Positions 4,581-64,000 of a stretch of 64,000 nt of DNA are shown piece by piece (the first letter of the stretch is position 1; every line of letters starts with the position of its first letter). The stretch is from Octopus sinensis (lineage: Eukaryota): the NCBI RefSeq assembly GCF_006345805.1, contig NC_043008.1, forward strand, positions 35,650,001 to 35,714,000, given 5' to 3'. The notes below the pieces were generated by a model that saw nothing but the letters and a program-made list of their open reading frames with translations, was not told where the DNA came from and searched no databases. The translations under genes and the position numbers were made by a program.

Positions 4581-5444
4581 TAAGGCCTGATCAATAAGTA
4601 TCTGAATAGTTGCCATAGTAACAAAGCTAAAGCACGCAGAGTAAAGCTGCTTGGCACAGATTGACCTTGAACTCTGCTGTGCATGCACACTAAGTTTCAA
4701 TGTACTAGCTCACTTCTGCTGTTTACAGCTGTGCTTGGAAGGAACGTGTGTAGCATGTCATCATCAAATTGACCCTGATAGAGGAAGTTGTCGTGGTGAT
4801 ACCTACTCAGAGACCTATGCAAAGTTGCAGAAAGTGTATGGAGAGGAGCATATGAGCCACAAACAGGTGTACGAATGGTTCAGACATTTCTGAGATGGTA
4901 AAAAAATGTCAATACTGATGAACATTCTGGGAGACCTGCAACCAGAAGAACTGAGAAAAACATTGCAGATGTGCATGCAGCTGTGAGGGAAATCGTCGAA
5001 TCACCATCCGTGAGTTATCAGAGGATGTACAGATTAGTTACGGTTCAGTTCCGTCCATTGTCACTGAAGATTTTGGTATGAGACCTGTTCTGCCAAGTTT
5101 GTGCCAAAACTGCTTTCAGCTGACCAAAAATCACTTGGACTTCAGTTGCACAAGATCTTGATTGTGTTGAGAATGATGAAAACTTTTTGAAAACTTTGTG
5201 TAGGCCTTTGAGCAGGTATTGCCAAGCTTTTCACAAAATTTGATGCAGTTTCCCTGCTCAGCTTTCTCTGTCATGGTCAATGCAATGATCACATACTACA
5301 CACGTTCCTTCCAAGCACTGCTATAAACAGCAAAAGTGAGCATGCACAGCAGAGTTCGAGGTCAATCTGTGCCAAGTGGCTTCACTCTCTGTGCTTTAGC
5401 TTCGTTACTATAGCAACAGTCTGGATACTATTAATCAGACCACA
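4581..5444 (+). mobile_element. Non-autonomous mariner derivative with long inverted ends and a decayed N-terminal transposase (HTH) fragment
   Basis: Inverted ends AGGCCTGATCAATAAGTATC / GATACTATTAATCAGACC with TA flanks; internal translation ETYAKLQKVYGEEHMSHKQVYEWFRHF..SGRP..RRITIREL..KFVPKLL; no DDD domain. Confidence 0.85.
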
Positions 5445-7359: not shown

Positions 7360-7613
7360 TATATACTCTTTTATTTGTTTCAGTCATTTGACTGCGGCCA
7401 TGCTGGAGCATTGCCTTTTAGTCGAGCAAATCAACCCCAAGACTTATTCTTTGTAAGCCTAGTACTTATTCTATCAGTCTCTTATGCCGAACCGCTAAGT
7501 TATGGGGATGTAAATACACCAGCATCGGTTATCAAGCGATATTGGGGGGACAAACACAGACAACACAAACACACCACACACACAAAACACACACACATAT
7601 ATATATTATATAT

Positions 7614-17155: not shown

Positions 17156-17815
17156 TCATCATCATCATCGTCATCGTTTAACGTCTGTTTTCCATGCTGG
17201 AATGGGTTGGAGGGTCTGACTGAGTACTGGCAAGCCGGGAGGCTGCAACCAGCTCAAATCTGATCTGGCAAGGTTTCTACAGCTGGATGCCCTTCCTAAC
17301 ACCAACCACTCCAAGAGTGTAGTGGGTGCTTTTTATGTGCCACCAGCATGAGGGCCAGTGAGGCAGCACTGGCATCAATCACACTTGAATGGTGCTTTTT
17401 ACATGCCACCAGCATGAGAGCCAGTCTGGTGGCACTGGCATTGACCATGCTTGAATGATGCTTTTTCATACCACCATCATGGGTGCCAGTCAGGCAGTAC
17501 TGGCATTGGCCATGATAATGATTTCACTTGACTCAACAGGTCTTCTCAAGCACAGCATATTGCTCGACTATTGAAGAGTACTCTGAAAAGGGCCGGTTAT
17601 GCAACACTGGCATTGGTCACGGCTACAATCTCACTTGGCTTGCCGGATCTTTTCAAGCACAGCATATCTCCAAAGGTCTTGGTCACTTGTCATTGCCTCT
17701 GTGAAGCCCAACGTTCGAAGGTCATGCTTCACCACTTCATCCCAGATCTTTCTGGGTCTACCTCTTCTACAGGTTCCCTCCACTGTTACAGCATGACACT
17801 TCTTCACACAGCTCT
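17156..17815 (-). mobile_element. 5'-truncated RTE-clade LINE (ORF C-terminus + 3' UTR + tail)
   Basis: Minus translation RGRPRKIWDEVVKHDLRTLGFTEAMTSDQDLWRYAVLEK; (GAT)n tail. Confidence 0.85.
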
Positions 17816-19520: not shown

Positions 19521-20060
19521 TAGGTGTGGCTGTGTGGTAAGTAGTCTGCTTGCCAACCACATGGTTCCGGGTTCATTCCCACTGCATGGCACCTTGTGCA
19601 AGTGTCTTCTTCTATAGCCTCGGGCTGACCAAAGCCTTGTGAGTAGATTAGGTAGACGGAAACTGAAAGAAGCCTGTCATATATATGTATATATGTGTGT
19701 GTGTAAGTGTGTGTGTGTGTAAGTGTGTGTGTGTGTGCATGTTTGTGTGTCTGTGTTTGTCCCCCCCAACATTGCTTGACAACCGATGGTGGTGTGTTTA
19801 CGTCCCCATAACCTAGCAGTTCGGCAAAAGTGACCGATAGAATAAGTACTAGGCTTACACAGAATAAGTCCTGGGGTCGATTTGCTCGACTAAAACCGGT
19901 GCTCCAGCATGGCCACAGTCAAATGATTGAAACAAGTAAAAGAATAAAAGGTTGCTGTAGGCTTACAAAGAATAAGTCCTGGGGTCGATTTGCTTGACGA
20001 AAGGCGGTGCTCCGGCATGGCCACAGTCAAATGACTGAAACAAGTAAAAGAGTAAAAGAG
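19521..20060 (+). mobile_element. tRNA-derived SINE (family A) with duplicated 3' tail
   Basis: Full SINE to ~19950, then TAGGCTTACAAAGAATAAGTCC...AAAAGAG repeated at 19958-20060. Confidence 0.85.
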
Positions 20061-21842: not shown

Positions 21843-23030
21843 TCATCATCATCATCATCATCGTTTAACGTCCGTTTTCCGCGCTAGCACGGGTTGGACG
21901 TTTCAACCGGGGTCTGGGGAGCCAGGGGCTGCCCCAGGCTCCAGTCTGGTCTGGCAGTGTTTTTACAGCTGGATGCCCTTCCTAACGCCAACCCTCCGCG
22001 AGTGTAGTGGGTGCTTTTTACGTGCCACCTGCACAGGTGCCAGAGGGGTCTGGCATCGGCCACAGTCGGTTGGTGCTTTTTATGGCCACCTGCACAGAGC
22101 CAGTCGGGGCGGTGCTGGCATCGGCCACGTTCGGATGGTGCTTTTTATGTGGGGGGGAGGGTGCAGAAATATAGGGGAGGCACCAGTGGGGAGGGGTGTT
22201 CGGAGTGTTCATGTACTTGACTCAACAGTCTCCTCAAGCACAGCGGGACGATTCTGGATCCGGTTACTTTGAATGGGCAGGGGCTATGCGGAACTGATGC
22301 AGGAAGCGCCCGGGTCTTTGCAGTCACAGCATATCTCCAGAGATCTCGGTCCTTCGCCATTGCCTCAGTGAGGCCCAACGCTCTGAGGTTATGCTTGACT
22401 GCCTCATCCCATGTCTTCCTGGGTCTGGGGGGGAGTCCAGCTGAGAAAGGTTCCACCAGTGAGAAGAGAGGGAGAGAAAGTGGGGGGGTGCAGGTAATAT
22501 AGGGAAGCACCAGCGGGGAAGGTTGGGGTAAGGAGGAACGATGACAGGGAGGGGTTGGAACAGGTTCGTAAGAGATAAAAACGTAGGATATCACGAGGGG
22601 GGGGACTGGAAGGAGATAGCCGGTTGAGGCGGTGACAGATTCAAAACAGGAGGAACGTAAGATCAGTGGGGTGGTTGATGAGCTGCGGCGCTAGCTGCTT
22701 GTCTTGGTGGGGGGAGGTGTAGTACACAGTGAAAGCATGTGAGGAGGAGGGGTAGGAGGGAGAGACACGTAATGGTGGTGGGGAGGAGGAGGGAGGAGGG
22801 CATATCCGGTGTAGATGGTGTGAACAGTGTTCACCGGTATTGGTGGTGGAGGTGGGAAAGGGCAGGAGCACCGCGAATGGCGAAGATCGAATTAAACTTC
22901 GTAGAGAAAGATAAAGATAGGGAAAGCATGGCGAAGATCAAGTTAAACTTCGTAGAGAAAGATAGAGGGTACCTTAAGGGATTAAATTTCGTAGAGAAAG
23001 AATAAGATAGGGAAGGCAAGCTCGTTAGTG
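21841..23030 (-). mobile_element. Young internally deleted RTE-like element (putative 5' UTR joined to ORF C-terminus and 3' UTR)
   Basis: CpG-rich; PRKTWDEAVKHNLRALGLTEAMAKDRDLWRYAV on minus at ~22310-22430; (GAT)n tail at 21841-21862; GC-rich non-coding block 22430-23030. Confidence 0.7.
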
Positions 23031-25432: not shown

Positions 25433-25490
25433 GCAGTGCCCCAGCATGGCCACAGCTCATAAGCTGAAACTAGAATCAATCAATCAATCA
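25433..25490 (+). mobile_element. Extremely 5'-truncated copy of the CR1-group LINE 3' end
   Basis: GTGCCCCAGCATGGCCACAGCTCATAAGCTGAAACTAGAA(TCAA)n is identical to the reverse complement of ~53765-53821. Confidence 0.9.
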
Positions 25491-34349: not shown

Positions 34350-34567
34350 ACTCTTTTACTCTTTTACTTGCTTTAGTCATTTGACTGAGGCCATGCTGGA
34401 ACACCGCCTTTTAGTTGAGCAAATCGACCCCAGGACTTATTCTTTGTAAGCCTAGTACTTATTCTATTGGTCTCTTTTTGCCAAACCGCTAAGTTATGGG
34501 GATGTAAACACACCAGCATTGGTTGTCAAGCGATGTTGGGGGGGCACAAACATACACACACAGACAC

Positions 34568-34778: not shown

Positions 34779-36484
34779 ACACTACGCAATACAAGAAAAT
34801 AAAGAAAATAATATTAAAATCAACTTCTAAAAAATACCATCAACAAGAGTGCAATACAAATGCCAACCAGCGTAGCTATGTAGCTACTTGATCTACAAGA
34901 AACAGAAGCCAAGCCTCCCTCAAATCATATTCCAAAGTTGCAAAACAAAAATGGAGAAATTCATTGGCCAATGCAGTCTTGATCATATGAAAAGACAGGA
35001 TGGGTGGTCAAAGCTGGAAAGTTTTTAATAATAGGCCAGATTTATCAAGGATGACCTAGGGTTAAAACAATAACAACAAGAATAATGAACGTCAACAATG
35101 AACCGATGAGAAAGCCAGTATGTGGTCAGTAAAGGTTTTAGAAATAACAGCTAAGAACACATTAGATAATGTGTTCCGTACATCCAAAAATAATGGAGGT
35201 TGGATCGGTTTTGGTCATAGTTTTACTCGATCAGGGTCATGCTAAGTCTAATCAACAACAGCAACAGTGCCACCACCACCTCCACCACCAAGTAATAACA
35301 ACTAAAATAACAACAACAAGAACAAGAATAACAGCTTTGCAATATTTAAAGATAATTGGAAAAGAGAAGTTTCTGTGCAGAAATGTTGAGAAGATTTGAC
35401 ATGTGATAGAAGATGAAGATTTAATCCAGATTTAAGAATCTCAGTAAAAACAAAGCACAACCATGGCGGTGGTGGTGGTGGTAATGGTGGAGGTGGAGGC
35501 TGTGGTGGCGGAGGTAGTGTTGCTGCTACTGGGATAGTGAAAATGGTGATAGCAGTGTTAGTGACAGTGATGGTGGTGGTGGAGATAGTGGAGCTGTGTG
35601 TTAAAGCAATGGTGGAGGTGGAGGTGGTGGTGGTGGTGGTGCTGCTGCTACTGCTGTTGTTGTTGCTGGAGATGATGATGTTGATGGTGGTGGGATAGTA
35701 AATGTAGAGCTGGTGGTTTCAGGTAGGGGTAAAAGTTGTTGGTGGTGGTGGTGGTGGTGTGGTGGTGGTGGTGGTGGCAGTGGTGATATAGTAGTATTTA
35801 TCAGTTGTAATATTCCATGATGGCGGTGGTGGTGTTGGTGGTGTCTGGGGGGGTGAGACAGTGGTGGTAGCAGTAATGGTTTGGTAGCGATGAGGATGGT
35901 GGTGGTGGTGGAGGTGGCAACGGCAGAGATGGTGATGGCGGTGAAAGAGGTCAATGGGTGAAAGTGCTTGTTGAAGTTGTTGTTGGTATCGTTTACCACC
36001 CCACCCCCACTGCAGTCAATCCTGATCAAACACACCAATGAACAAAGATATCCCAGCCATGACCTTCCCATCTGTTCCTCCTAAGTGTAGGACAACATTA
36101 TCCAATGAGTCCTCTATTAAGACTTGAAGGTGTGATTGGAGGGAGATTTGGTTGCTAATTCTAACAGACCGACAGACCATGTAGAGGCTACCTCATTATC
36201 TTAGCGTTGGTTGTTGTAGAGTGGTATAGATGGCATGGTTAGGCTACTTGGTGGTAGAAAGCCTGGTACTGGCGTTTTGGCAGTAGTAGTAGAAATAGTA
36301 TACAATGTTGATAAGGTTGGGTGGGGAGCTATTTAGAGGTTCCAGTTGATAGGCATGGATGGAGAGAGTGATCTCTGGTGGTGATAGTCTGAAAGTTGCA
36401 GGTATAAGGGGTAATGAGGATGGTGAAGGTGGTGGATGTGATGGTGATGGTGGTGGTGATGGCTGAAACTGTAAAAGTGGTGGT

Positions 36485-36690
36485 GGTGGTGCCACAGGGT
36501 GGTGGTGGTGCCACAGGGTGGTCGTGGTGCCACAGGGTGGTCGTGGTGCCACAGGGTGGTTGTGGTTCCACAGGGTGGTTGTGGTGCCAGTGGTCATGGT
36601 GCCACAGGGTGGTCGTGGTGCCACAGGGTGGTTGTGGTGCCAAAGGGTGGTTGTGGTGCCGGTGGTCGTGGTGCCACAGGGTGGTGGTGG
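36485..36690. repeat. 19-bp G-rich minisatellite (GCCACAGGGTGGTYGTGGT) embedded in a (GGT)n region spanning ~35465-36960
   Basis: About 11 full or partial units counted by eye. Confidence 0.9.
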
Positions 36691-37569
36691 TGATGACAGA
36701 GGTGGTACAGTGGTGGTGTTGAAAGAATGAGATGGGGGAGTGGTGGTGAAGGTGGTGGTGGAAGTGGTGGTGGTGGTGGTGGTGGTGTTGGTGGTCGTGG
36801 TGGATGTGGTGGTGGTGGTGGTGGTGGTAGCGGTGATAGCCATGGTAAACAGCAGTGGTGATTGAAACAGCAAAAGTAGTGGTGGTCGTGGCAGCAGCAG
36901 CAACTGCAGCAGTGACAGTGGAAATTAGAAACAGCAGCAGTAGTAGTTGCAGTGGTCGTGACAGCAATGATGCTGCTGAAAGCTTTACATCTAATGGAAT
37001 TATTTTTGGTGCTTTTAAAAGACATTATTACAGTTGTTTCAATTCTATATTCCAGACATACGAGTCACTCCTTCCTTATACCTTTCACACTATTTCAATC
37101 ACTTCACACTTGTTACATCTTCAATATTATAGTCTTAATAAAAACTACATACCATTCTGATGCCGTCGCCGGTAGCGGAGATAGGAGTGGTGGTAGCGGA
37201 GACAGAAGGTTGGGTTTGGGGTGGAGGTGGCAGGGGGGTAGCTGTGAGGGTGGGGTTGGGGTTGGGGGTGAAGATTTCTTTATATTTTGTAGCATAGGTA
37301 ACAATGAAATGAGCATTAATACTAAAATATAGCTTACATGACTACTATATTTCACAAACATGAGACATAAAACAGTATATGATACGTGCATACATCAGTG
37401 TAAGTATGTGTGTGTACTTTTGTCTATGTAAATGTGTGTGTGGTGTGTGCATGCATGCATGTATAAGTATATACATTTGTCTGGCACATATGTATACATG
37501 TAAATTTGAATGTATGTATGTAAGTATGTATGTATGTATGCATGTATATATCTTGTGCTTTTGTATTTA

Positions 37570-40555: not shown

Positions 40556-40945
40556 TTAGCATCCTCTTTCCATGCTAGCATGGGTTGGATGTTTCGACTG
40601 GGGTCTGGGAAGCCAGAAGGCTGCACCAGGCCCAGTCTGATCTGGCAATGTTTCTACAGCTGGATGCTCTTCCTAACACCAACCACTCTGTGAGTATAGT
40701 AGGTGCTTTTTACATGCCACCGGCACAGGTGCCAGACGAGGCTGGCAAACGGCCACGGTCGGATGGTGCTTTTTACGTGCCACCGGCACGGGAGCCAGGC
40801 CAGGCTGGCAACGGCCACGATCGGATGGTGCTTTTTACATGCCACTGGCACAGAGGCCCATCGGGGTGGCACTGGCAATGGCCACATTCGGACGGTTCGC
40901 TTACGTGGCACCGGCACTGGTATCACAGCTACAATTTCCATTGAT
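40525..40945 (-). mobile_element. RTE 3' UTR fragment with internal tandem units and (GAT)n tail
   Basis: Same family as 2021-2494, 24584-25088 and 60446-60899. Confidence 0.8.
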
Positions 40946-42699: not shown

Positions 42700-43272
42700 A
42701 GCAATGAAGGAGATGTCATACCTGTTCAGTTTTTTCACATGGCTTGAGAGTCAATACTGTTGTCAACACAGAGATGTTGGAGAAAGTAGTGAGGCCCTGT
42801 ATAGTCAGAGTATACAATGGAAGACCATACATCTTCCAATGAAACTTTGCACTGTCTCATAAAGCTAAGACAACCCAAGTATGGATACATGCCAATCTCC
42901 ATAATCATGCTTTCCCAGATACAAGGCCTCCTAGCTCACCAGACCTCAATCCACTGGACAATTACATATGGGGCATAGTTGAGAGAGAGGTGCATCAATG
43001 CCCTCATAACACCATACAACCTCTTGAGGCCAACATAACCAGCACTATGTCCAACGTTGATGAAGATCATCTGATTTGAGCATGTGAACACTTCCAACCT
43101 TATACTGAATGAAGCAGCATTTGATGCTAACCATAGCTTCATTGAATAGGCGGGATAAAAGGATTCTCAAGATTATTTCTACCAATTTGTTTTCTAATAC
43201 AGATTTTCTTGGATGAGCTATGCATCTTTTTCAAAATTCATACAAACAACCCAAAAAAACTGACCCACCCTG
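42700..43272 (+). mobile_element. Decayed Tc1/mariner-superfamily (DD37D/maT-like) 3' fragment
   Basis: NGRPYIFQ*..HKAKTTQVW..PPSSPDLNPLDNYIWGIVE; terminal CCCACCCTG followed by TA. Confidence 0.75.
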
Positions 43273-47751: not shown

Positions 47752-48152
47752 AGGCGCAGGAGTGGCTGTGTGGTAAGTAGCTTGTTTACCGGCCACATGG
47801 CTCCGGGTTCAGTCCCACTGCGTGGCACCGTGGGCAAGTGTCTTCTACTATAGCCTCGGGCCGACCAAAGCTTTGTGAGTGGATTTGGTAGACAGAAACT
47901 GAAAGAAGCCCGTTGTATATATATATATATATATATATATATGCGTGTATGTGTTTGTCCCCCTAGCATTGCTTGACAACCGATGCTGGTGTGTTTATGT
48001 CCCCGTTACTTAGCGGTTCGGCAAAAGAGACCGATAGAATAAGTACTGAGCTTACAAAAGAATAAGTCCCGGGGTCGAGTTGCTCGATTAAAGGCGGTGC
48101 TCCAGCATGGCCGCAGTCAAATGACTGAAACAAGTAAAAGAGAGAAAGAGAA
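47752..48152 (+). mobile_element. tRNA-derived SINE (family A), young copy
   Basis: CpGs retained; tail GGCGGTGCTCCAGCATGGCCGCAGTCAAATGACTGAAACAAGTAAAAGAG. Confidence 0.9.
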
Positions 48153-52448: not shown

Positions 52449-53864
52449 AACAGAGACAGGAGAAACACACACATACACACATAGACACAACAGTCATCTT
52501 TTAGTTTCCATCTACCAAATCCATATCTGGAACAATAGCAAAAGACACTTGCCCAAGGTGCTGCACAGTGGGGCTGAACCCAAGACCACATGGTTGGGAA
52601 GCAAACTTCTTAATTACGCACCCATGAATGATATTAAATGCTTCTCCCCAATTAAGTAAAATGGAGATGATGTTGACGTTATGGCTGGTTGCTTCGTGCT
52701 TTCAAAGACCAGTTAAAGAAAGAAATCCTTTTCTTGAAAAACAGTTTAGGATTTGCATGTTTCTGGGCCTTAACCCAGAAACATGCATGTCCTCAGGTGT
52801 GAATCTTGGCTGGTAGGGGTGCTTGCCTCCCCTTCACAAATATAAGGACACAGAAAATGTGTCAAAGCCGACAAGAAGCGTTCAATGCTTCCTAGGGCTA
52901 AACAGCAGTGGTGTAATTCCCATACGGGACTGTCACGTTAAGTTGACAGTATACAACCACTCTATCACTCCACCACCGCTCATGTCACTTTGAAACATTT
53001 AAAAATTCAATATTTCTGAGTTTAGGATTGGTGACAGAAAAAGCCTCCGGTTGTAAAATCCTTCCTTAATAACTTTCATGGTTATTTAGAAAAATGGATG
53101 TTAAATGAATGAATGAACAAAATATGCATACAAAGGGCATTCTATCAAATTTCACACACAAGATGTTGGTTAATCAAAGATAAAAAGTAAAAGAAACTTA
53201 CTGAAGGAGTTAAACAATGAAACTGAACCCAAAGCATCTAGATTGCAAAACAAAGTCCACAACTGTCCTATGATACCCTACCAGGTTGTTGGAAAATGTT
53301 GGGTACCATGTAAAAAGCACCCAGTCCGATCTGTAAAGTGATTGATTTCAGAAAGGACATCTAGTCGTAAAAAACTCTACCAAAACAGACTTTGCCTGTG
53401 CTGGTGCCACTTAGGTTGGTTCTGGGAATGGCATCCAACCATAAAAACCATGCAAAAGTAGACAGTGGAATTCAGCACAGTCCTCCAGCATATCACTTCC
53501 TGTCAAACCATACCACCCGTGCCAGCATGGTGGACAAATGTTAAATGATGATGATCATCATCATCATCATCATCGTTTAACGTCCGTTCTCCATGCTAGC
53601 ATGGGGATGATAATGATGATGATGCTGATCATGATGGTGATTAGGATGATGATGAAGAAGAACATAATGCTACCATCTCACAGATAGATTTTTGAGTGAT
53701 ATTGTTCAAAGGAAAATGAAAGGTTGTATTGTTCTCTATTATTTGAATTAAAATTTTGCCATTGATTGATTGATTGATTGATTCTAGTTTCAGCTTATGA
53801 GCTGTGGCCATGCTGGGGCACCGCCATTTGGTGTTGCTACTTGGTTTCACTTCATGGAGGCTTT

Positions 53865-56803
53865 CTAGCAACTGCTATTTGGTGAAGTTGGTTCATCTGG
53901 GACACCTGACAGGAAGAGATCCAGCTTCATTTTAAAGACATCTGTATCCACCCCATCCAGGTCTCTCAGGTTCTTTGGGAGGATATTGAAGAGCTGTGGG
54001 CCTCGGAAGCCCAGGCTATCACAGAATCTTGTCCTACATCTTGATGGCAGGTTTGGAGTCCTAGGCACCACGCAGTGGCGCCCAGTTCTGGCATTTGCGT
54101 AACTCTCGATGCCAAAGTTCAGGACACTTCCCTCCAGGATCTTCCAGATGTATATTATGGCATATCTTTCCCGCCTACGCTCCAGGGAATATAATTTTAA
54201 TCTCTTGAGTCTTTCCCAGTAGCTTACATTCTGCATAGAGGCTATCTTCTTTGTGTAGCTTCGTTGGATCGCCTCAAGTTCTGTGATCAACTTGACACTG
54301 GATGGTGACCATAGCTGAGAGCAATAGTCAAAGTGGCTTAGGACAAGTGTCTTCCAGAGGACCATCATGGTTTCTTGTTCTCTTGTTCTAAAGGTTCTAA
54401 GAATCCATCCAGCCAGCCGTCTACATTTCATTGTCAGTTTAGCAACATGTACATGAAAGGTCGCGTCATCACTCATGTGAATACCCAGGTCACGCACTGA
54501 TTGTGCCTCTGGGATTGCAATCCCTCCGGGTCCAGTGTATTCATTGGGTATTGCATTCAGTTTTGCATGCTGATAGTATAAAGCTTGAAACTTTCCAGCA
54601 TTGAACTGCATGCTTTTCTTTTCAGCCCACTTGTATATTTCGTCCAGCTCACATTGCAGGTGTTTAGTGTCCTCAGGGTTCTGTATTGCCTGTGAAACTT
54701 TTGTATCATCTGCATAACTTGTGATTGTGGCTCTCTGCGTGGCTGAGGGCATGTCTGAGAGGGCCATTATGAACAGTAGTGGTCCCAGAACAGTGCCCTG
54801 CGGACACCGCTCACTATTTGTGTGTTAATGGAGGTGGCCCCATTGGCTACTACCACTGACTTCTATCCTTCAGAAAGTCATGAAGCCATTCTCCCAGTTT
54901 TCCAACTATGTTGAGATCATGCAGTTTGTGACATATCATTCCATGATCGACTTTATCAAAGGCCTTTGCAAAGTCGAGATATATCACTTCCACATTTGAG
55001 TGGTTGAGCAGCCGTTTCAGCACCCAGTCATAGTGTTGTAGGAGCTGAGTTAAACAGCTTCTCCCTGGTCGGAAACCATGTTGGGTGTCGGGCAGCAAGT
55101 CATTCTCTTCAAGGAAGGTGATCAGCTTCCTTCTGACTATTCGTTCCATGACCTTGCTGATGTGTGAGGTCAGAGAGATAGGTTTATAGTTCTTGGCTTC
55201 CGCTCTGCTACCTCCTTTATGAATGGGGCATATTTTACCTTCCTTCAGTTTTCCTGGAAGTTTGCCAGCTGCAAGGAAGCTCTGAAGGAGGAACTGCAGT
55301 GGTCTTGCTAGGACTCTCTTACATGCTTTTAGGAGGATTGCCGGGAATCCATCGGGGCCAGTAGCTGAGTCTGTTTTCATTTCATCTATAGCCTTGGTTA
55401 CATCGTCTTCCTTTATATCGATGTAATCTATCGTCGCCGCCTCTGATTTTATATCTGCAGTGGTAAAAAAGTCAGTTGGATTGGTGATTTGGAGATGCCC
55501 AAGGGGTGGAGTGAAAACACTCTTGAATTGCTCATTCAGTATTTCACTTACCCTCATTGGTTTTCCTGTAAGTGTGCCATCCTTTTCGAGGAGTGGCCCT
55601 ATTCTACAGTGCACTGTAGCTGTTTCTTTGGCCATACCTGTAGAAAGCTCTGGGGTTAGATTTTATGTTTTCTATAGCCCAGGCTTCTTTGTCTGCTCTT
55701 TCTTTTCTTTCATGGGAGAGTTGCAGACATTTTTCGATTTCCAACAGTTTTATTTTTAGGCGGGACTTTTCACTGCTTTCAATCTGTTTGTTTAGGCGAT
55801 TTGAAAATTTCGTATGCCGTCTCATTAAAATTTTCCTCTCTCTGGGGATTTTGTTCTTGTGTACAGTGGCCTTTCTCTCTGGGACACATTTGTAGCATAT
55901 GGCTTGCATTACAGACATGAATTGTTGAAGTTTCACGTCGATGTCTGGCGAGGAGAGACATTTAGGCCAGTTTTGTTTGAGGATCTCTTTCTCAATTTGT
56001 TTCCAGTTTGCCTTATGGTAGTTCAAGCTGGAAAGATTTTGAGGGTTTCTTGTAGGCTGCATGTCCGTGCTCTCTTTTGGCCCGTACATGGTCAGCTCTA
56101 TCATGTTGTGATCCGAGAGTAGTGTCGGTGTCACTTTCACATTATGGATGAGATCCATGTCATTTGTGAAGCAGAGATCCAGTGTGTTACCTGCCCTGGT
56201 TGGTTGGAGTATTACCTGCTCCATGTACAGGGTGTTGATGAGGTTCAGGAGGGACCTCGCCTGTCCTCGTTCACATCTTGTCATTCCTGGGAGAGAAAGG
56301 CCCTCGGGCCATCTGACATTGGGCAGATAGAAGTCTCCCATAAGAAGCACACCTATGTGTTGTTCTAATGTGGTTAGAATTTCTTCTATTTTTATAAGGC
56401 AGTCTTCAAACTTGCCCACATGGCTTGGGGCATCTGAAGGGCGATATGTAGCACACACAACTACATCAAGTTGCCTAATATGTACAATTAGTGTGTCACA
56501 CACCGAGTTTGAGTATGACAAGAGGACCTGGGGTGTGAGGTCCTCACGGATGTACATAGCAACACCTCCATGACTCCTTTCTTTCCTGTCGGTCCGTAGT
56601 ACAGCATACTGTGGTATGTGTAACTCCGCATCTGCTATGTCCGGTTTCAGGTGCGTTTCTGTAAGTGCTATGCATAAGGCTTGATTGCATGCAACAAAGT
56701 ATCTCAGGAACGGGATCTTTGTCCTGTTACTGAGTGTTTGCAGTCCTCTGATGTTCAGTAGGAGTATCGAGGTGAGGTGTACGTTGTTGCCGGCGGTGTC
56801 CAT
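53865..56803 (-). pseudogene. LINE ORF2: AP endonuclease + reverse transcriptase, split by single-base frameshifts near 55633, 54856 and 54803
   Basis: EN motifs NIRGL, LTETHL, GDFY, LDL, SDH; RT motifs GPDG, YKPISLTS, QHGFRPGRSC, YLDFAKAFDKVDH, (P)QGTVLGPLLF, YADD, DLG; CR1-like C-terminus LEAIQR..YWERLKRLKLYSLERRR. Confidence 0.92.
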
Positions 56804-57665
56804 CCTGTGTCTGTTTGCTGTGGTGGTCTGGTATATAGTGGGTAGTCCCACCTGCGGGCTTGGGTTTGATGAAGCCAGGTCAGCTGCTGTACAATCTTTT
56901 GTGCCATGCACAAAAAAGATTGTTGCTCAGCAGCTGCTCTTTCGGCAACATCATGTTGGCTGTTTGTGGCGCGCACAACATCTGCGTACCTCCGCTTTGG
57001 GGCAGGTGGTGCATAGTCCATCCCTTTTCTTTGTGTTGATGGTTTGTCCATCTGCCTCGTGTCTCTGTGGCAGGGTCCCCGATGTGCAAAGCGGCAGCCT
57101 GCACCTTCCTTTCCGTGCCAGCAGGAACCTCTCAGGTAGAACATACACACCCGTGTGCGCTGTTTGGTTCCATCCTTTGCGGTTCCACTTCTATTCCTGG
57201 TTGTTTCACTCTTTGGTCCTGCTTGAGCTTTTTCTTTTCCTTTAGCTCTTCCAGTCCTTCTTTTAGTTCTTCTTCCTCCCTCTACCTCTTCACCGGGTTC
57301 TCCGTCTCCATGGCCCTTGCTGCCGGTTGGAGAACTTGCACCTGGGTTCACTTCCCGGGCAGGTTTCTCATTCAAAACCTCCTCCTGGGCGTCCACCAGG
57401 TGGGGTGACTTCTTTCATCGTCTCCATTCTTGCCATCTTTGCCCCGCTCGTTCTCAAAGATGGCATCAAGTGCGCCAATGTGCGACCGTACAAGCGCATA
57501 TGAGCGCACGAATTCCTGTCGCTTTCGCTCCATCTGAGCCGCTGTCCTCTTGTAGCCTCTGCTCTTCAGCGCAGCCGCAATCACCTCGCTAGGGCTATCT
57601 CCGCTGGCGCACTCCCATGCTCGTACGAATAAATCCAGCTCGTCACGTCTCCATGCTCTGGACAT
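56755..57665 (-). pseudogene. LINE ORF1 (~300 aa if one frameshift near 57400 is repaired): Myb/SANT-like domain + CCCH zinc finger
   Basis: N-terminal W-x3-E-x3-F-x3-W..EVIAAALKSRGYKRTAAQMERK..F..Y; CMFYLRGSCWHGKEGAGCRFAH (C-x7-C-x8-C-x3-H); overlaps the start of ORF2. Confidence 0.75.
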
Positions 57666-57726
57666 GCTGGATAATCCGTCTATCCGTTTATCTATCTAAT
57701 TATGTTCGAGAGAAGACAGGATGATA

Positions 57727-58875
57727 TTACGGCTAATTAGAAGATAGAGTACTTGAAAAAGAAATATTAACAATATTAAAGTTTGTGTAAAAACGTTATT
57801 TGGGTAAAAACGTTATTTAATCTTAAGGCTAATTAGGAGATAGAGTATCTGAAAATATATTAGCAATATTAATATTATATAGAGTGTGGTAAAAAACGTT
57901 ATTTAATCTTAAGGCTAATTTGGAGATAGAGTATCTGAAAATATTAGCAATATTAATATTATATTAGAGTGGGTAATATTAACGTTATTTAATTTAATCT
58001 TAAGGCTAATTAGAAGACAGAGTATCTGAAAATATATACAATATTAAGCAATATTAACCGTTATTTAATTTAATCTTAAGGCTAATTAGACGTTATTAAT
58101 ATTAAACGTTATTTAATTTAATCTTAAGGCTAATTAGAAGATAGAGTATCTGAAAATATATTAGCAATATTAATATTATATTAGAGTGTGGATAAAAACG
58201 TTATTTAATCTTAAGGCTAATCAGGAGATAGAGTATCTGAAAATATATTAGCAATGTTAATTTATATTAGAGTGTGGGTAATATTAAACGTTATTTAATT
58301 TAATCTTAAGGCTAATTAGAAGATAGAGTATCTGAAGAATTATTAACAATATTAAACAATATTAAACGTTATTTAATTTAATCTTAAGGCTAATTAACAA
58401 TATTAAACAATTAACGTTATTTAATTTAATCCTAAGGCTAATTAACAATAGTTATAACAATATTAAACAATATTAAACGTTATTTAATTTAATCTTAAGG
58501 CTAATTAACAGTAATTATTAACAATATTAAACAATATTAACGTTATTTAATTTAATCCTAAGGCTAATTAACAATAATTATTAACAATATTAAACGTTAT
58601 TTAATTAATCCTAAGGCTAATTAGACGTTATTAATATTAAACGTTATTTAATTTAATCTTAAGGCTAATTAGAAGATAGAGTATCTGAAAAATTATTAAC
58701 AATATTAAACGTTATTTAATTTAATCTTAAGGCTAATTAACAATAATTATTAACAATATTAAACAATATTAAACGTTATTTAATTTAATCCTAAGGCTAA
58801 TTTGACGGTATCAATATTAAACGTTATTTAATTTAATCTTAAGGCTAATTAGAAGATAGAGTATCTGGAAAATTA
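57727..58875. repeat. Modular AT-rich tandem array in the LINE 5' leader
   Basis: 17 copies of GGCTAAT by eye, core AACGTTATTTAA(TTTAA)TCYTAAGGCTAATT, spacing ~48-96 bp. Confidence 0.92.
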
Positions 58876-59297
58876 TTATATCGAGAACAGTTATTGAAAA
58901 TGTAAACAAACCAAATGACGATCGCAACTTTAACTAAGATGTGGGCCTAAGTGAAAGATAAAATAGAATAATAAATAAAATATGAAATAGATGAAATTGA
59001 TACTTAATCCAACAATGTGGTCTGGATTATTTTTTTTTTGGTTTACGGGATTTTTTCAGGAGAGATGCTTCTTTTTTCTTTCTTGCAGGAGATAACTTGA
59101 TTCAGTTATTTTTGCACCATGTGCGTTTCGGCGAAAATGAAAATTACTGTGTATATGTATATATTTATATATATATTTTTAAAAATATTTTTAACCAAAG
59201 TGTTGTAGTGATCTCTATGACTTAGAGTTTTACGTTTTGCAACTACAGTGGGTTATTTCGCCGTTCTATGCAGACTTTTTCACAGAGCAAAGGCAAT

Positions 59298-59716: not shown

Positions 59717-60072
59717 AGAAAAAGTTAAGGTAGAAAACGCTGAAATAATTTTATCATAAAAAATATTTTAGTACCGGTTTCAGTCATTGGGACTTTTTCA
59801 ACTCTTCAAATATGGAAGACAAATTTTGGAAAAATTAAATGCAAAGTTTTTTAAAAAAGATATCTGCATATTATTCAAATACAAGGGGCATTTTCCTAGT
59901 ATTTGAATACTATGAAAATATTCTTTTGAAACACTTTACATTTAATTTTTCCAAAATTTAATTGTTTTCCATACTTAGAGTTGAAAAAGTCTCAATGACT
60001 GAAACCGGTACTAAAATGTTTTTTATAAAAAAATTATTTTAGCATTTTCTACCTTGACATTTTTACCTTATA
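59712..60072. repeat. Fold-back element (~170-bp arms), each arm with a variant hammerhead-like core
   Basis: Plus 59981-60010 TTGAAAA-AGTC[TCAAT]GACT-GAAA-CCGGT-A; mirrored on minus at ~59771-59800; flanked by TG/TA tracts. Confidence 0.75.
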
Positions 60073-61182: not shown

Positions 61183-61599
61183 AGGCACAGGAGTGGCTGT
61201 GTGGTAAGTAGCTTGCTTACGAACCACATGGTTCCGGGTTCAGTCCCACTGCGTGGCATCTTGGGCAAGTGTCTTCTGATATAGCCTCGGGCTGACCAAA
61301 GCCTTGTGAGTGGATTTGGTAGACAGAAACTGAAAGAAGCCTGTCGTATATATGTATATATATATGTATGTGTGTGTATATGTTTGTGTGTCTGTGTTTG
61401 TCCCTCTAGCATTGCTTGACAACCGATGCTGGTGTGTTTACGTCCCCATCACTTAGCGGTTCGGCAAAAGAGACCGATAGAATAAGTACTGGGCTTACAA
61501 AGAATAAGTCCCGGGGTCGATTTGCTCGACTAAAGGCGGTGCTCCAGCATGGCTGCAGTCAAATGACTGAAACAAGTAAAAGAGTAAAAGAGTAAAAGA

Positions 61600-63260: not shown

Positions 63261-64000
63261 AATATATTTGTAGACATGTATATGATAACATAATAATGAA
63301 CTTACTTTATACAATGCTTAGGAAAAGTAGGCAAAACTGCATGAAAAGTACATAAAATATATACAGGAAACGAACAGTGAACAAGTCTTAAAAAAAGAAG
63401 AATCAGGGTTGATGGCTGGGGGGCATCAGATGTATTGTTGGCAAATTTCAGGAAGCATGGAAATTTTGAAGGATAGTGTGTCTCAACAGCTAACAACTGA
63501 TGCAGGTAGCTTATTCCATTCTTCAGCAAATCAAAGCATGAAAAATATGTTCCTGAAAGACCTACAGTAACTTCCAAGACGTATGCGGTCTACAGGTGCA
63601 AATCAGTCAATGACTTTGATAAAGCCTATCCAGAGTTGCCTCTCTTGGGTATTTCCCATTGATAAATATGTCACAAACAGATTTTAACCAACCTAAAGTT
63701 CACACACACACACATACATATATGGAGTGAGAGAGAGAGGGAGAGACAGACAGACAGACAAACAGATTGACTAGGATGAGTTATTTTGCAGATATTTTCT
63801 GTTTTATCTAGTTATATTCTAGGAATGTCGTACAAGTAATAAATGCATGCATTAAGTGCAGTTTGCTTGTGCAAATTTATGGTAATAATGATTCTTTCAG
63901 AATATAATAATTCTGATTTCAACACAGTTTTGGATTAAAATTTATGCTGAACGAATTCTGTTTTGTACTTATGCAGGAAAGTGAACAAATATGTTCGTTT

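Follow-up and report, generated by a model that had tools for sequence, protein, structure and literature searches.

LINEs outside the L1 clade must carry a promoter through a mode of copying that is prone to truncation, and how that promoter survives is poorly known outside mammals. The question is raised by a locus in Octopus sinensis where a tandem array of ~1.15 kb, composed of 17 AT-rich units, lies directly 5′ of the first open reading frame (ORF1) of a LINE: is this array a working part of the element, and possibly its promoter, or is it a minisatellite of no consequence? We analysed the array and its surroundings in a 64,000-nucleotide stretch of contig NC_043008.1 (hereafter the window, in whose coordinates all positions are given), following up an earlier note that had described the array from the strand opposite to that of the LINE and had interpreted it as a tunable promoter/enhancer built of shuffled modules.

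Units and turnover of the array

Two features describe the repeat itself.

57727..58880, minus strand (the LINE sense strand): variable-monomer tandem array of 16 full cores and 1 diverged proximal core, 21% GC
57809..58412, no strand: block of four units (BD, BD, BC, short unit) duplicated as a higher-order repeat, with copies of 296 and 308 bp and 277 of 294 aligned bases identical

A pattern search of the 64-kb window matched the core (core A) 16 times, at 57809-58849 and always on the plus strand, against a mean of 0.02 matches and a maximum of 1 in shuffled sequence, and found it nowhere else in the window. At the ORF1-proximal edge, where the most diverged unit is also located, the array opens with a diverged 17th core (57731, GGCTAATT) and, at 57792, an additional stub reading AACGTTATTT; the constant core that the earlier note had ascribed to every unit is thereby borne out. 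The repetitive character is equally evident in the 12-mers occurring at least five times, which cover 545 positions compared with at most 6 in 1,000 shuffles.

The 16 full units were parsed into four with modules B, C and D, three with B and C, five with C only, three short units ending in E and one with a terminal B. Module B is present at nine places and missing from half of the full units (8/16), D occurs in 4 of 16 and is confined to the six of the 16 nearest ORF1, and the short AGACGTTATTAATATTA ending that we call E, which is similar to the start of the core, closes 3 of 16 (two exact, one variant). The order is fixed in all 16 units, running from the core to B or E or neither, then to the C repeats and then to D; units differ through gain or loss of modules and none of the 16 has them permuted, so the modules described earlier are real and the term 'shuffled' overstates what they do. 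Unit periods measure 47-92 bp when cut at AACGTT and 48-96 bp when cut at TAATTAGCC, in keeping with the ~48-96 bp first given, and the reported lengthening of units toward ORF1 holds as well (Spearman −0.56, p 0.03, 15 units). Decomposition with TRF, which the earlier note had proposed, recovered the array and with it a higher-order duplication that the note had overlooked (period 308, 2.1 copies, 91%), in which units 1-4 correspond to units 5-8; unit similarity at an offset of four units exceeds that in permutations (p 0.012).

The core is the best conserved part of the array, with 2 singleton changes in 432 positions versus 6 in 189 in module B. Module D and a 5-bp short-core variant were lost at repeated words, the loss of B being less clean. 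Head-to-tail units of 10-100 bp with interspersed variants are what defines a variant-repeat minisatellite, and the array is of this build: it displays minisatellite-like turnover around an invariant core. One alternative is a neutral origin, in which an AT-rich stretch of the leader was expanded by slippage, before or after insertion, the number of units has no effect, and any promoter lies within the unique segment at 58876-59119 or within the tether between array and ORF1. The turnover of variant repeats is typical of such loci, the genome has an extreme tendency to form repeats (135 TRF rows), 6-bp palindromes are in excess in the monomer (7 vs 3.2, p 0.04) and regulatory motifs are not robustly enriched, as detailed below; homogenisation could by itself explain why the core is better conserved. 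Against this stand a core that stays constant from unit to unit although every other module can be missing, and the exact position of the array in the leader of ORF1, where it is the only array of its kind in the window. We regard the neutral explanation as unlikely, though it is the most serious of the alternatives.

Further searches of the array were negative. TRF found no other array of this kind and no second copy was found in the 64-kb window, the core had no match among GTDB contigs nor the array among phages, and Rfam returned nothing in the window at gathering scores. A coding role was rejected, ORFs of at least 60 codons being absent within the array, as was RNA structure, the folds of three units being no better than those of shuffles (z −0.12 to +0.16); z-scores elsewhere were +1.43 and +0.41 in the flanks and −1.04 at the 3′ end of the LINE.

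The remainder of the window is rich in other repeats, and no host gene was identified in it (150 of 225 filtered ORFs scanned); a PHD_5 match at 63331-63567 scored under the cut-off and looks accidental. Three short arrays in which a related unit of 62-66 bp is repeated in tandem lie at 17325-17506, 22010-22151 and 40702-40853, apparently inside a dispersed repeat, and a G-rich 19-bp minisatellite of ~12 copies lies at 36479-36692. A MITE-like foldback at 59719-60063, between microsatellites, has 87-nt inverted arms that are 91% complementary and inner inverted repeats, and Mariner/Tc1 remnants were recognised at 4645-4890 (plus strand, Mos1 HTH, E 1e-6) and 42843-43076 (plus strand, DDE_3, E 3e-5).

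The LINE and its ORF1

The element adjoining the array comprises the following features, all read on the minus strand.

53761..53864: short 3′ end with an (AATC)n tail
53865..56803: ORF2, APE endonuclease and reverse transcriptase, with frameshifts near 55633, 54857 and 54803
56755..57414: C-terminal part of ORF1, CCCH zinc finger, one frameshift from the N-terminal part
57402..57665: N-terminal part of ORF1, three-helix Myb/SANT-like domain (PF13837 E 6.6e-4, below cut-off)
57666..57726: unique tether of 61 nt between the array and the ORF1 ATG
58876..59119: unique segment on the 5′ side of the array, without ATG, in which the true 5′ end of the element may lie; no target-site duplication found

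ORF2 encodes an APE endonuclease followed by a reverse transcriptase (PF14529 E 1e-9; PF00078 E 3e-14 and 4e-10) and is 86% identical to an intact relative (P0001) over 988 residues. The copy carries four frameshifts, some of which may be assembly errors, but its 1,182 aligned codons contain no in-frame stop, which bounds neutral drift at ~2.3%. Of 109 columns that are invariant in 17 relatives, the copy departs at 5, a number within the range seen when the intact relatives are themselves compared by leave-one-out (0-7 of 112-119 columns in 16 of 17 cases and 18 of 130 in the remaining one). We take the copy to be full-length and young, though frameshifted.

LINEs of the CR1/L2 lineage have a short 3′ end that terminates in a microsatellite tail. 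The order of APE and reverse transcriptase in ORF2 and a short 3′ end with a microsatellite tail are both found here, and we assign the element provisionally to the CR1/L2 type from this architecture and from such general features rather than from a tree. An L1 affiliation was rejected: Pfam shows no coiled coil, RRM or CTD (Transposase_22) in ORF1, the tail is (AATC)n and not poly(A), and there is no target-site duplication above the null. A 3′-end motif did not occur among the literature matches listed. Within the window, a 58-bp 5′-truncated copy of the LINE 3′ end lies in a (TA)n tract at 25433-25490 (plus strand, 57/58 identical). Dispersed SINE-like repeats at 20000-20044, 48090-48134, 61532-61576, 19897-19918, 34385-34415 and 7377-7422 share ~45 bp with that 3′ end (79-84%); the sharing suggests a LINE-SINE partnership.

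The identity of ORF1 was approached from several directions. Its N-terminal part scored 20.5 bits against PF13837, under the 27-bit Pfam cut-off, with 5 of 19 aligned members matching at E up to 1, and Pfam searches of ORF1 gave only Myb_DNA-bind_4 and CCCH-type matches. The predicted structure of the domain (pLDDT 80; helices at residues 7-19, 25-35 and 42-77) was most similar to the DNA-binding domain of the GT-1 trihelix factor (Z 7.7, rmsd 2.6 over 59 residues, with no match at Z of at least 8), followed by MYB, SANT, TEA and Zeste domains; Foldseek with the same model returned no match at E 0.001, and ESM Atlas gave Myb-type leads for the N-terminal piece (at most 0.84). The Myb/SANT-like assignment accordingly derives from three weak but concordant results, namely the sub-cut-off PF13837 match, the Atlas leads and the structural match to GT-1. 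The first 88 residues matched 22 proteins among 1.84 billion representatives, and the 18 relatives that we aligned share the conserved domain at their ORF1 N termini (P0075, P0076, P0078 and P0079, which have long or unrelated extensions, were omitted). An intact relative of 371 residues, P0064, for which ESM Atlas found nothing, matches both halves of ORF1 (51% and 40%, E 7e-29), and P0080 and P0063 have the same Myb-then-CCCH order; from these three arrangements we take a Myb/SANT-like domain with a CCCH finger to be the ORF1 of the family. Muscleblind is a weak match for the CCCH finger (E 0.018). The C-terminal piece had no match in the word-indexed protein search, and a profile search with ORF1 found three proteins. 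In P0004, an Octopus vulgaris-labelled protein with 36% identity, the CCCH finger stands ahead of the endonuclease.

Metcalfe and Casane (2014) distinguish ORF1 types I-IV, characterised by RRM/CCHC, Tnp22, PHD and esterase domains (PMC4120745). No domain of types I-IV was matched in the present ORF1, which would fall in the unclassified type V, and Myb, SANT and CCCH do not appear in the main text of that source. Neither a Myb/SANT-like plus CCCH ORF1 nor repeat leaders in CR1-type or invertebrate elements were found among the literature listings searched. That search covered titles and the starts of abstracts, with Repbase, Dfam and subscription journals outside its scope, and so it is weak evidence of ORF1 novelty; the family may already sit in deposited repeat libraries, one supplement (PMC13282606) having been searched by term. 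The combination is seemingly an undescribed type of ORF1. LINE expression is debated in this lineage, for which Table 1 of PMC13282606 lists 13 CR1 families and 787 recently active insertions in Octopus vulgaris; CR1 does not occur in the searched passages of PMC9115989.

The array as probable leader and candidate promoter

The relationship of array and LINE can be judged from their junction. The array ends 61 nt before the ATG of ORF1 and does not resume past the 3′ tail of the LINE, which argues that the LINE was not inserted into an older array. The LINE strand is free of ATG for 1,454 nt (59119 to 57666), whereas the opposite strand holds 10 ATGs, and together with the proximity to ORF1 this makes the array most likely the 5′ leader of the element. 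Since the 244 nt beyond the array are also free of ATG, the leader may reach ~59100; none of 65 AT-rich background tiles is ATG-free over this length (shuffle p 0.02), an endpoint that was picked post hoc, and over the first 125 nt alone the absence of ATG has a p of 0.20. The array probably belongs to the LINE. Otherwise it would be a satellite or other element in its own right, with the LINE inserted next to it by chance, or a host enhancer read by homeodomain factors. An unfixed 5′ boundary and a best target-site duplication score of 7, no better than the null (5-9), would fit such an origin, yet it requires a LINE broken 61 nt above its ATG that landed exactly at the edge of the array; there are no terminal inverted repeats around the array, and homeodomain motifs are at chance level. 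We consider it very improbable. A stretch of 57 nt just 5′ of the array (58947-59003, minus strand), AT-rich, bounded by GT and AG and with a good pyrimidine tract, could be a mini-intron in the leader or due to chance.

The analysis rests on a single array-bearing copy of the LINE. Relatives were sought in the GTDB genome set, in which ~680 stretches match LINE reverse transcriptase patterns and 373 of 601 scanned encode relatives; these matches are probably eukaryotic contamination of MAGs. Among 80 such contaminant loci there was no match to the array or ORF1, and a comparable array was absent from all 39 that have at least 1 kb upstream, a few having other tandem repeats; the loci, at 25-40% ORF2 identity, are too distant. 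At one of them (L013:2061-2413) a 26-bp unit is repeated 13.6 times 1.4 kb upstream of ORF2, and this may likewise be a leader built of repeats.

Our preferred reading, at about even odds, is that the array lies in the 5′ leader of the LINE and serves it as an internal promoter that is redundant and renews itself, as mouse L1 monomers do. A single ancestral A-B-C-D monomer would have been amplified via unequal crossing-over or slippage, with modules lost at shared AATATT(A) words and the invariant 31-bp core as the functional unit. Transcription would begin within the array; since copies are made from the 3′ end and lose sequence at the 5′ end, a large number of cores would enable daughter copies to retain a promoter. 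The variation in B, C and D would more likely be a side effect of turnover in the array than a code for tuning. The superior conservation of the core, the ATG-free sense strand and the position-restricted D units favour this promoter, and the 21% GC, the short units and the absence of a YY1 core count against it.

Two supports that had been offered for function proved not to bear weight. The CpG in AACGTT is indeed retained, with none of 18 ACGT sites decayed and about one CpG per unit, but its survival is uninformative in a copy this young: at 2.3% drift all 18 would survive with a probability of 0.43 without hypermutation and of 0.015 with five-fold hypermutation at the upper bound, and retention is to be expected in a young copy in a host whose transposons are reported as poorly methylated (PMC9476566). 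Homeodomain-type sites, from which tissue-specific control had been proposed, are not enriched when tested on one non-redundant 92-bp monomer, which removes the effect of amplification (TAATT 3 vs 1.8, p 0.29; TAATCY 1 vs 0.4, p 0.35). Across the 24 tests TAATCY reached p 0.04-0.06 in the 31-bp core alone and TAAT was borderline per monomer (p 0.03-0.07); TAATT and TAATCY occur together in 4 of 53 AT-rich background tiles, and TATA motifs show no enrichment in the monomer.

Read on the LINE strand, the array also contains sequences that resemble signals of RNA processing.

57849..58872, minus strand: 8 YYYCAG acceptor-like sites (6 of them TTTTCAG), one per intact B, and 28 ATTAAA in the cores

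Module B on this strand is TTTTCAG followed by a constant 14-mer, and the array accounts for 6 of the 18 copies of TTTTCAG on the minus strand of the window. The array might serve as a promoter trap in which ATTAAA, an AT-rich spacer and TTTTCAG lead to cutting or splicing of host read-through RNA, so that the LINE borrows a capped 5′ end. The enrichment of TTTTCAG in the monomer (p 0.003-0.009 vs shuffles), the eight acceptor-like sites and 28 ATTAAA on a sense strand that has no ATG and no GTRAG donor, and a TGCTAAT branch-like word upstream in four D units are all consistent with such a trap; A[AT]TAAA itself has a p of 0.07-0.09 per monomer and 0.02-0.045 in the core. The enrichment nonetheless reflects one ancestral event that was amplified and was seen post hoc among 24 tests, TTTTCAG also occurs in 4 of 106 AT-rich background tile-strands, half of the full units lack B, and there is only a short polypyrimidine tract. 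A scan of 150 of the 225 filtered ORFs in the window identified no host exon, and spliced-leader trans-splicing is described as unproven in molluscs in PMC3795323. We judge an RNA-processing role to be improbable.

The predicted Myb/SANT-like domain of ORF1 might itself recognise the array, binding the repeated core and feeding back on transcription of the LINE, which would be compatible with the promoter reading. The conservation of the domain at the N terminus in the aligned relatives, its resemblance to GT-1 and the 16 identical palindrome-containing cores that adjoin ORF1 would suit this feedback. Conversely, a Z under 8 may reflect the common three-helix fold only, the Pfam score is below its cut-off, SANT-like domains also bind histones or RNA and could serve in the choice of target site or chromatin, and a specificity of the domain for the core is hypothetical. 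We rate such feedback as improbable, slightly behind the RNA-processing role. An equally speculative extension would give the LINE its own operator-repressor or operator-activator pair, in which the Myb/trihelix domain binds the 17 cores, the CCCH finger binds RNA and array length sets the autoregulatory gain, while B may add splice acceptors that capture host transcripts.

Known systems and the meaning of the array

Mouse L1Md elements (A, Gf, Tf) carry tandem monomers 5′ of ORF1 behind a tether (PMC6454616; PMC9022269) and have position-restricted unit subtypes (PMC6454616), and in both respects the octopus array is alike; long mouse L1 arrays are attributed to unequal crossing-over in PMC6454616, and PMC5381506 describes recurrent tandem motifs in the L1 5′ UTR of several mammals. 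The differences are considerable. Mouse monomers are ~200 bp long, CpG-island-like and provided with YY1/AP-1 sites, in 3-4 copies on average with a tether of ~250 bp, whereas the octopus units are 47-92 bp long, internally modular, of 21% GC, and present in 17 copies with a tether of 61 nt, on a sense strand without ATG and with a single plus-strand ATG in the array that is not ATGG. The analogy to mouse L1 drawn in the earlier note consequently stands as regards position and anatomy and loses its homeodomain and CpG supports, and the scaling of mouse promoter strength with copy number on which it drew is too simple, the relation being described as complex and nonlinear (PMC9022269). As the LINE is of a different clade, any likeness to mouse L1 is convergent at best, and the array is best read as a monomer-array leader and candidate promoter convergent on that of mouse L1.

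Variant-repeat and higher-order minisatellites have interspersed unit variants, block duplication and a degenerate edge unit. The array shares all three, but its variants are whole modules of 14-45 bp around an invariant core, in the leader of a retrotransposon. A Myb-like protein of Harbinger/PIF binds subterminal repeats, and R2 has a Myb domain. Like the present LINE, both encode a Myb/trihelix domain that lies next to repeated DNA motifs or is directed at them; Harbinger/PIF is a DNA transposon, however, and R2 a site-specific element with a single ORF, whereas the putative domain here belongs to ORF1 of a two-ORF APE LINE. Within the CR1/L2 lineage (Jockey superfamily) the Myb/SANT-like plus CCCH composition likewise differs from the described types I-IV (PMC4120745).

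Should the array be neutral, it would be a minisatellite of the common sort, within a transposon copy that is dead or was mis-polished. Taken alone it is a variant of a known theme, and it is the pairing with a Myb-like ORF1 that is worth following, since a Myb-like plus CCCH ORF1 makes self-regulation directly testable. If the promoter reading is true, an AT-rich modular array on a CR1/L2-type element would represent an independent origin of the solution found in mouse L1.
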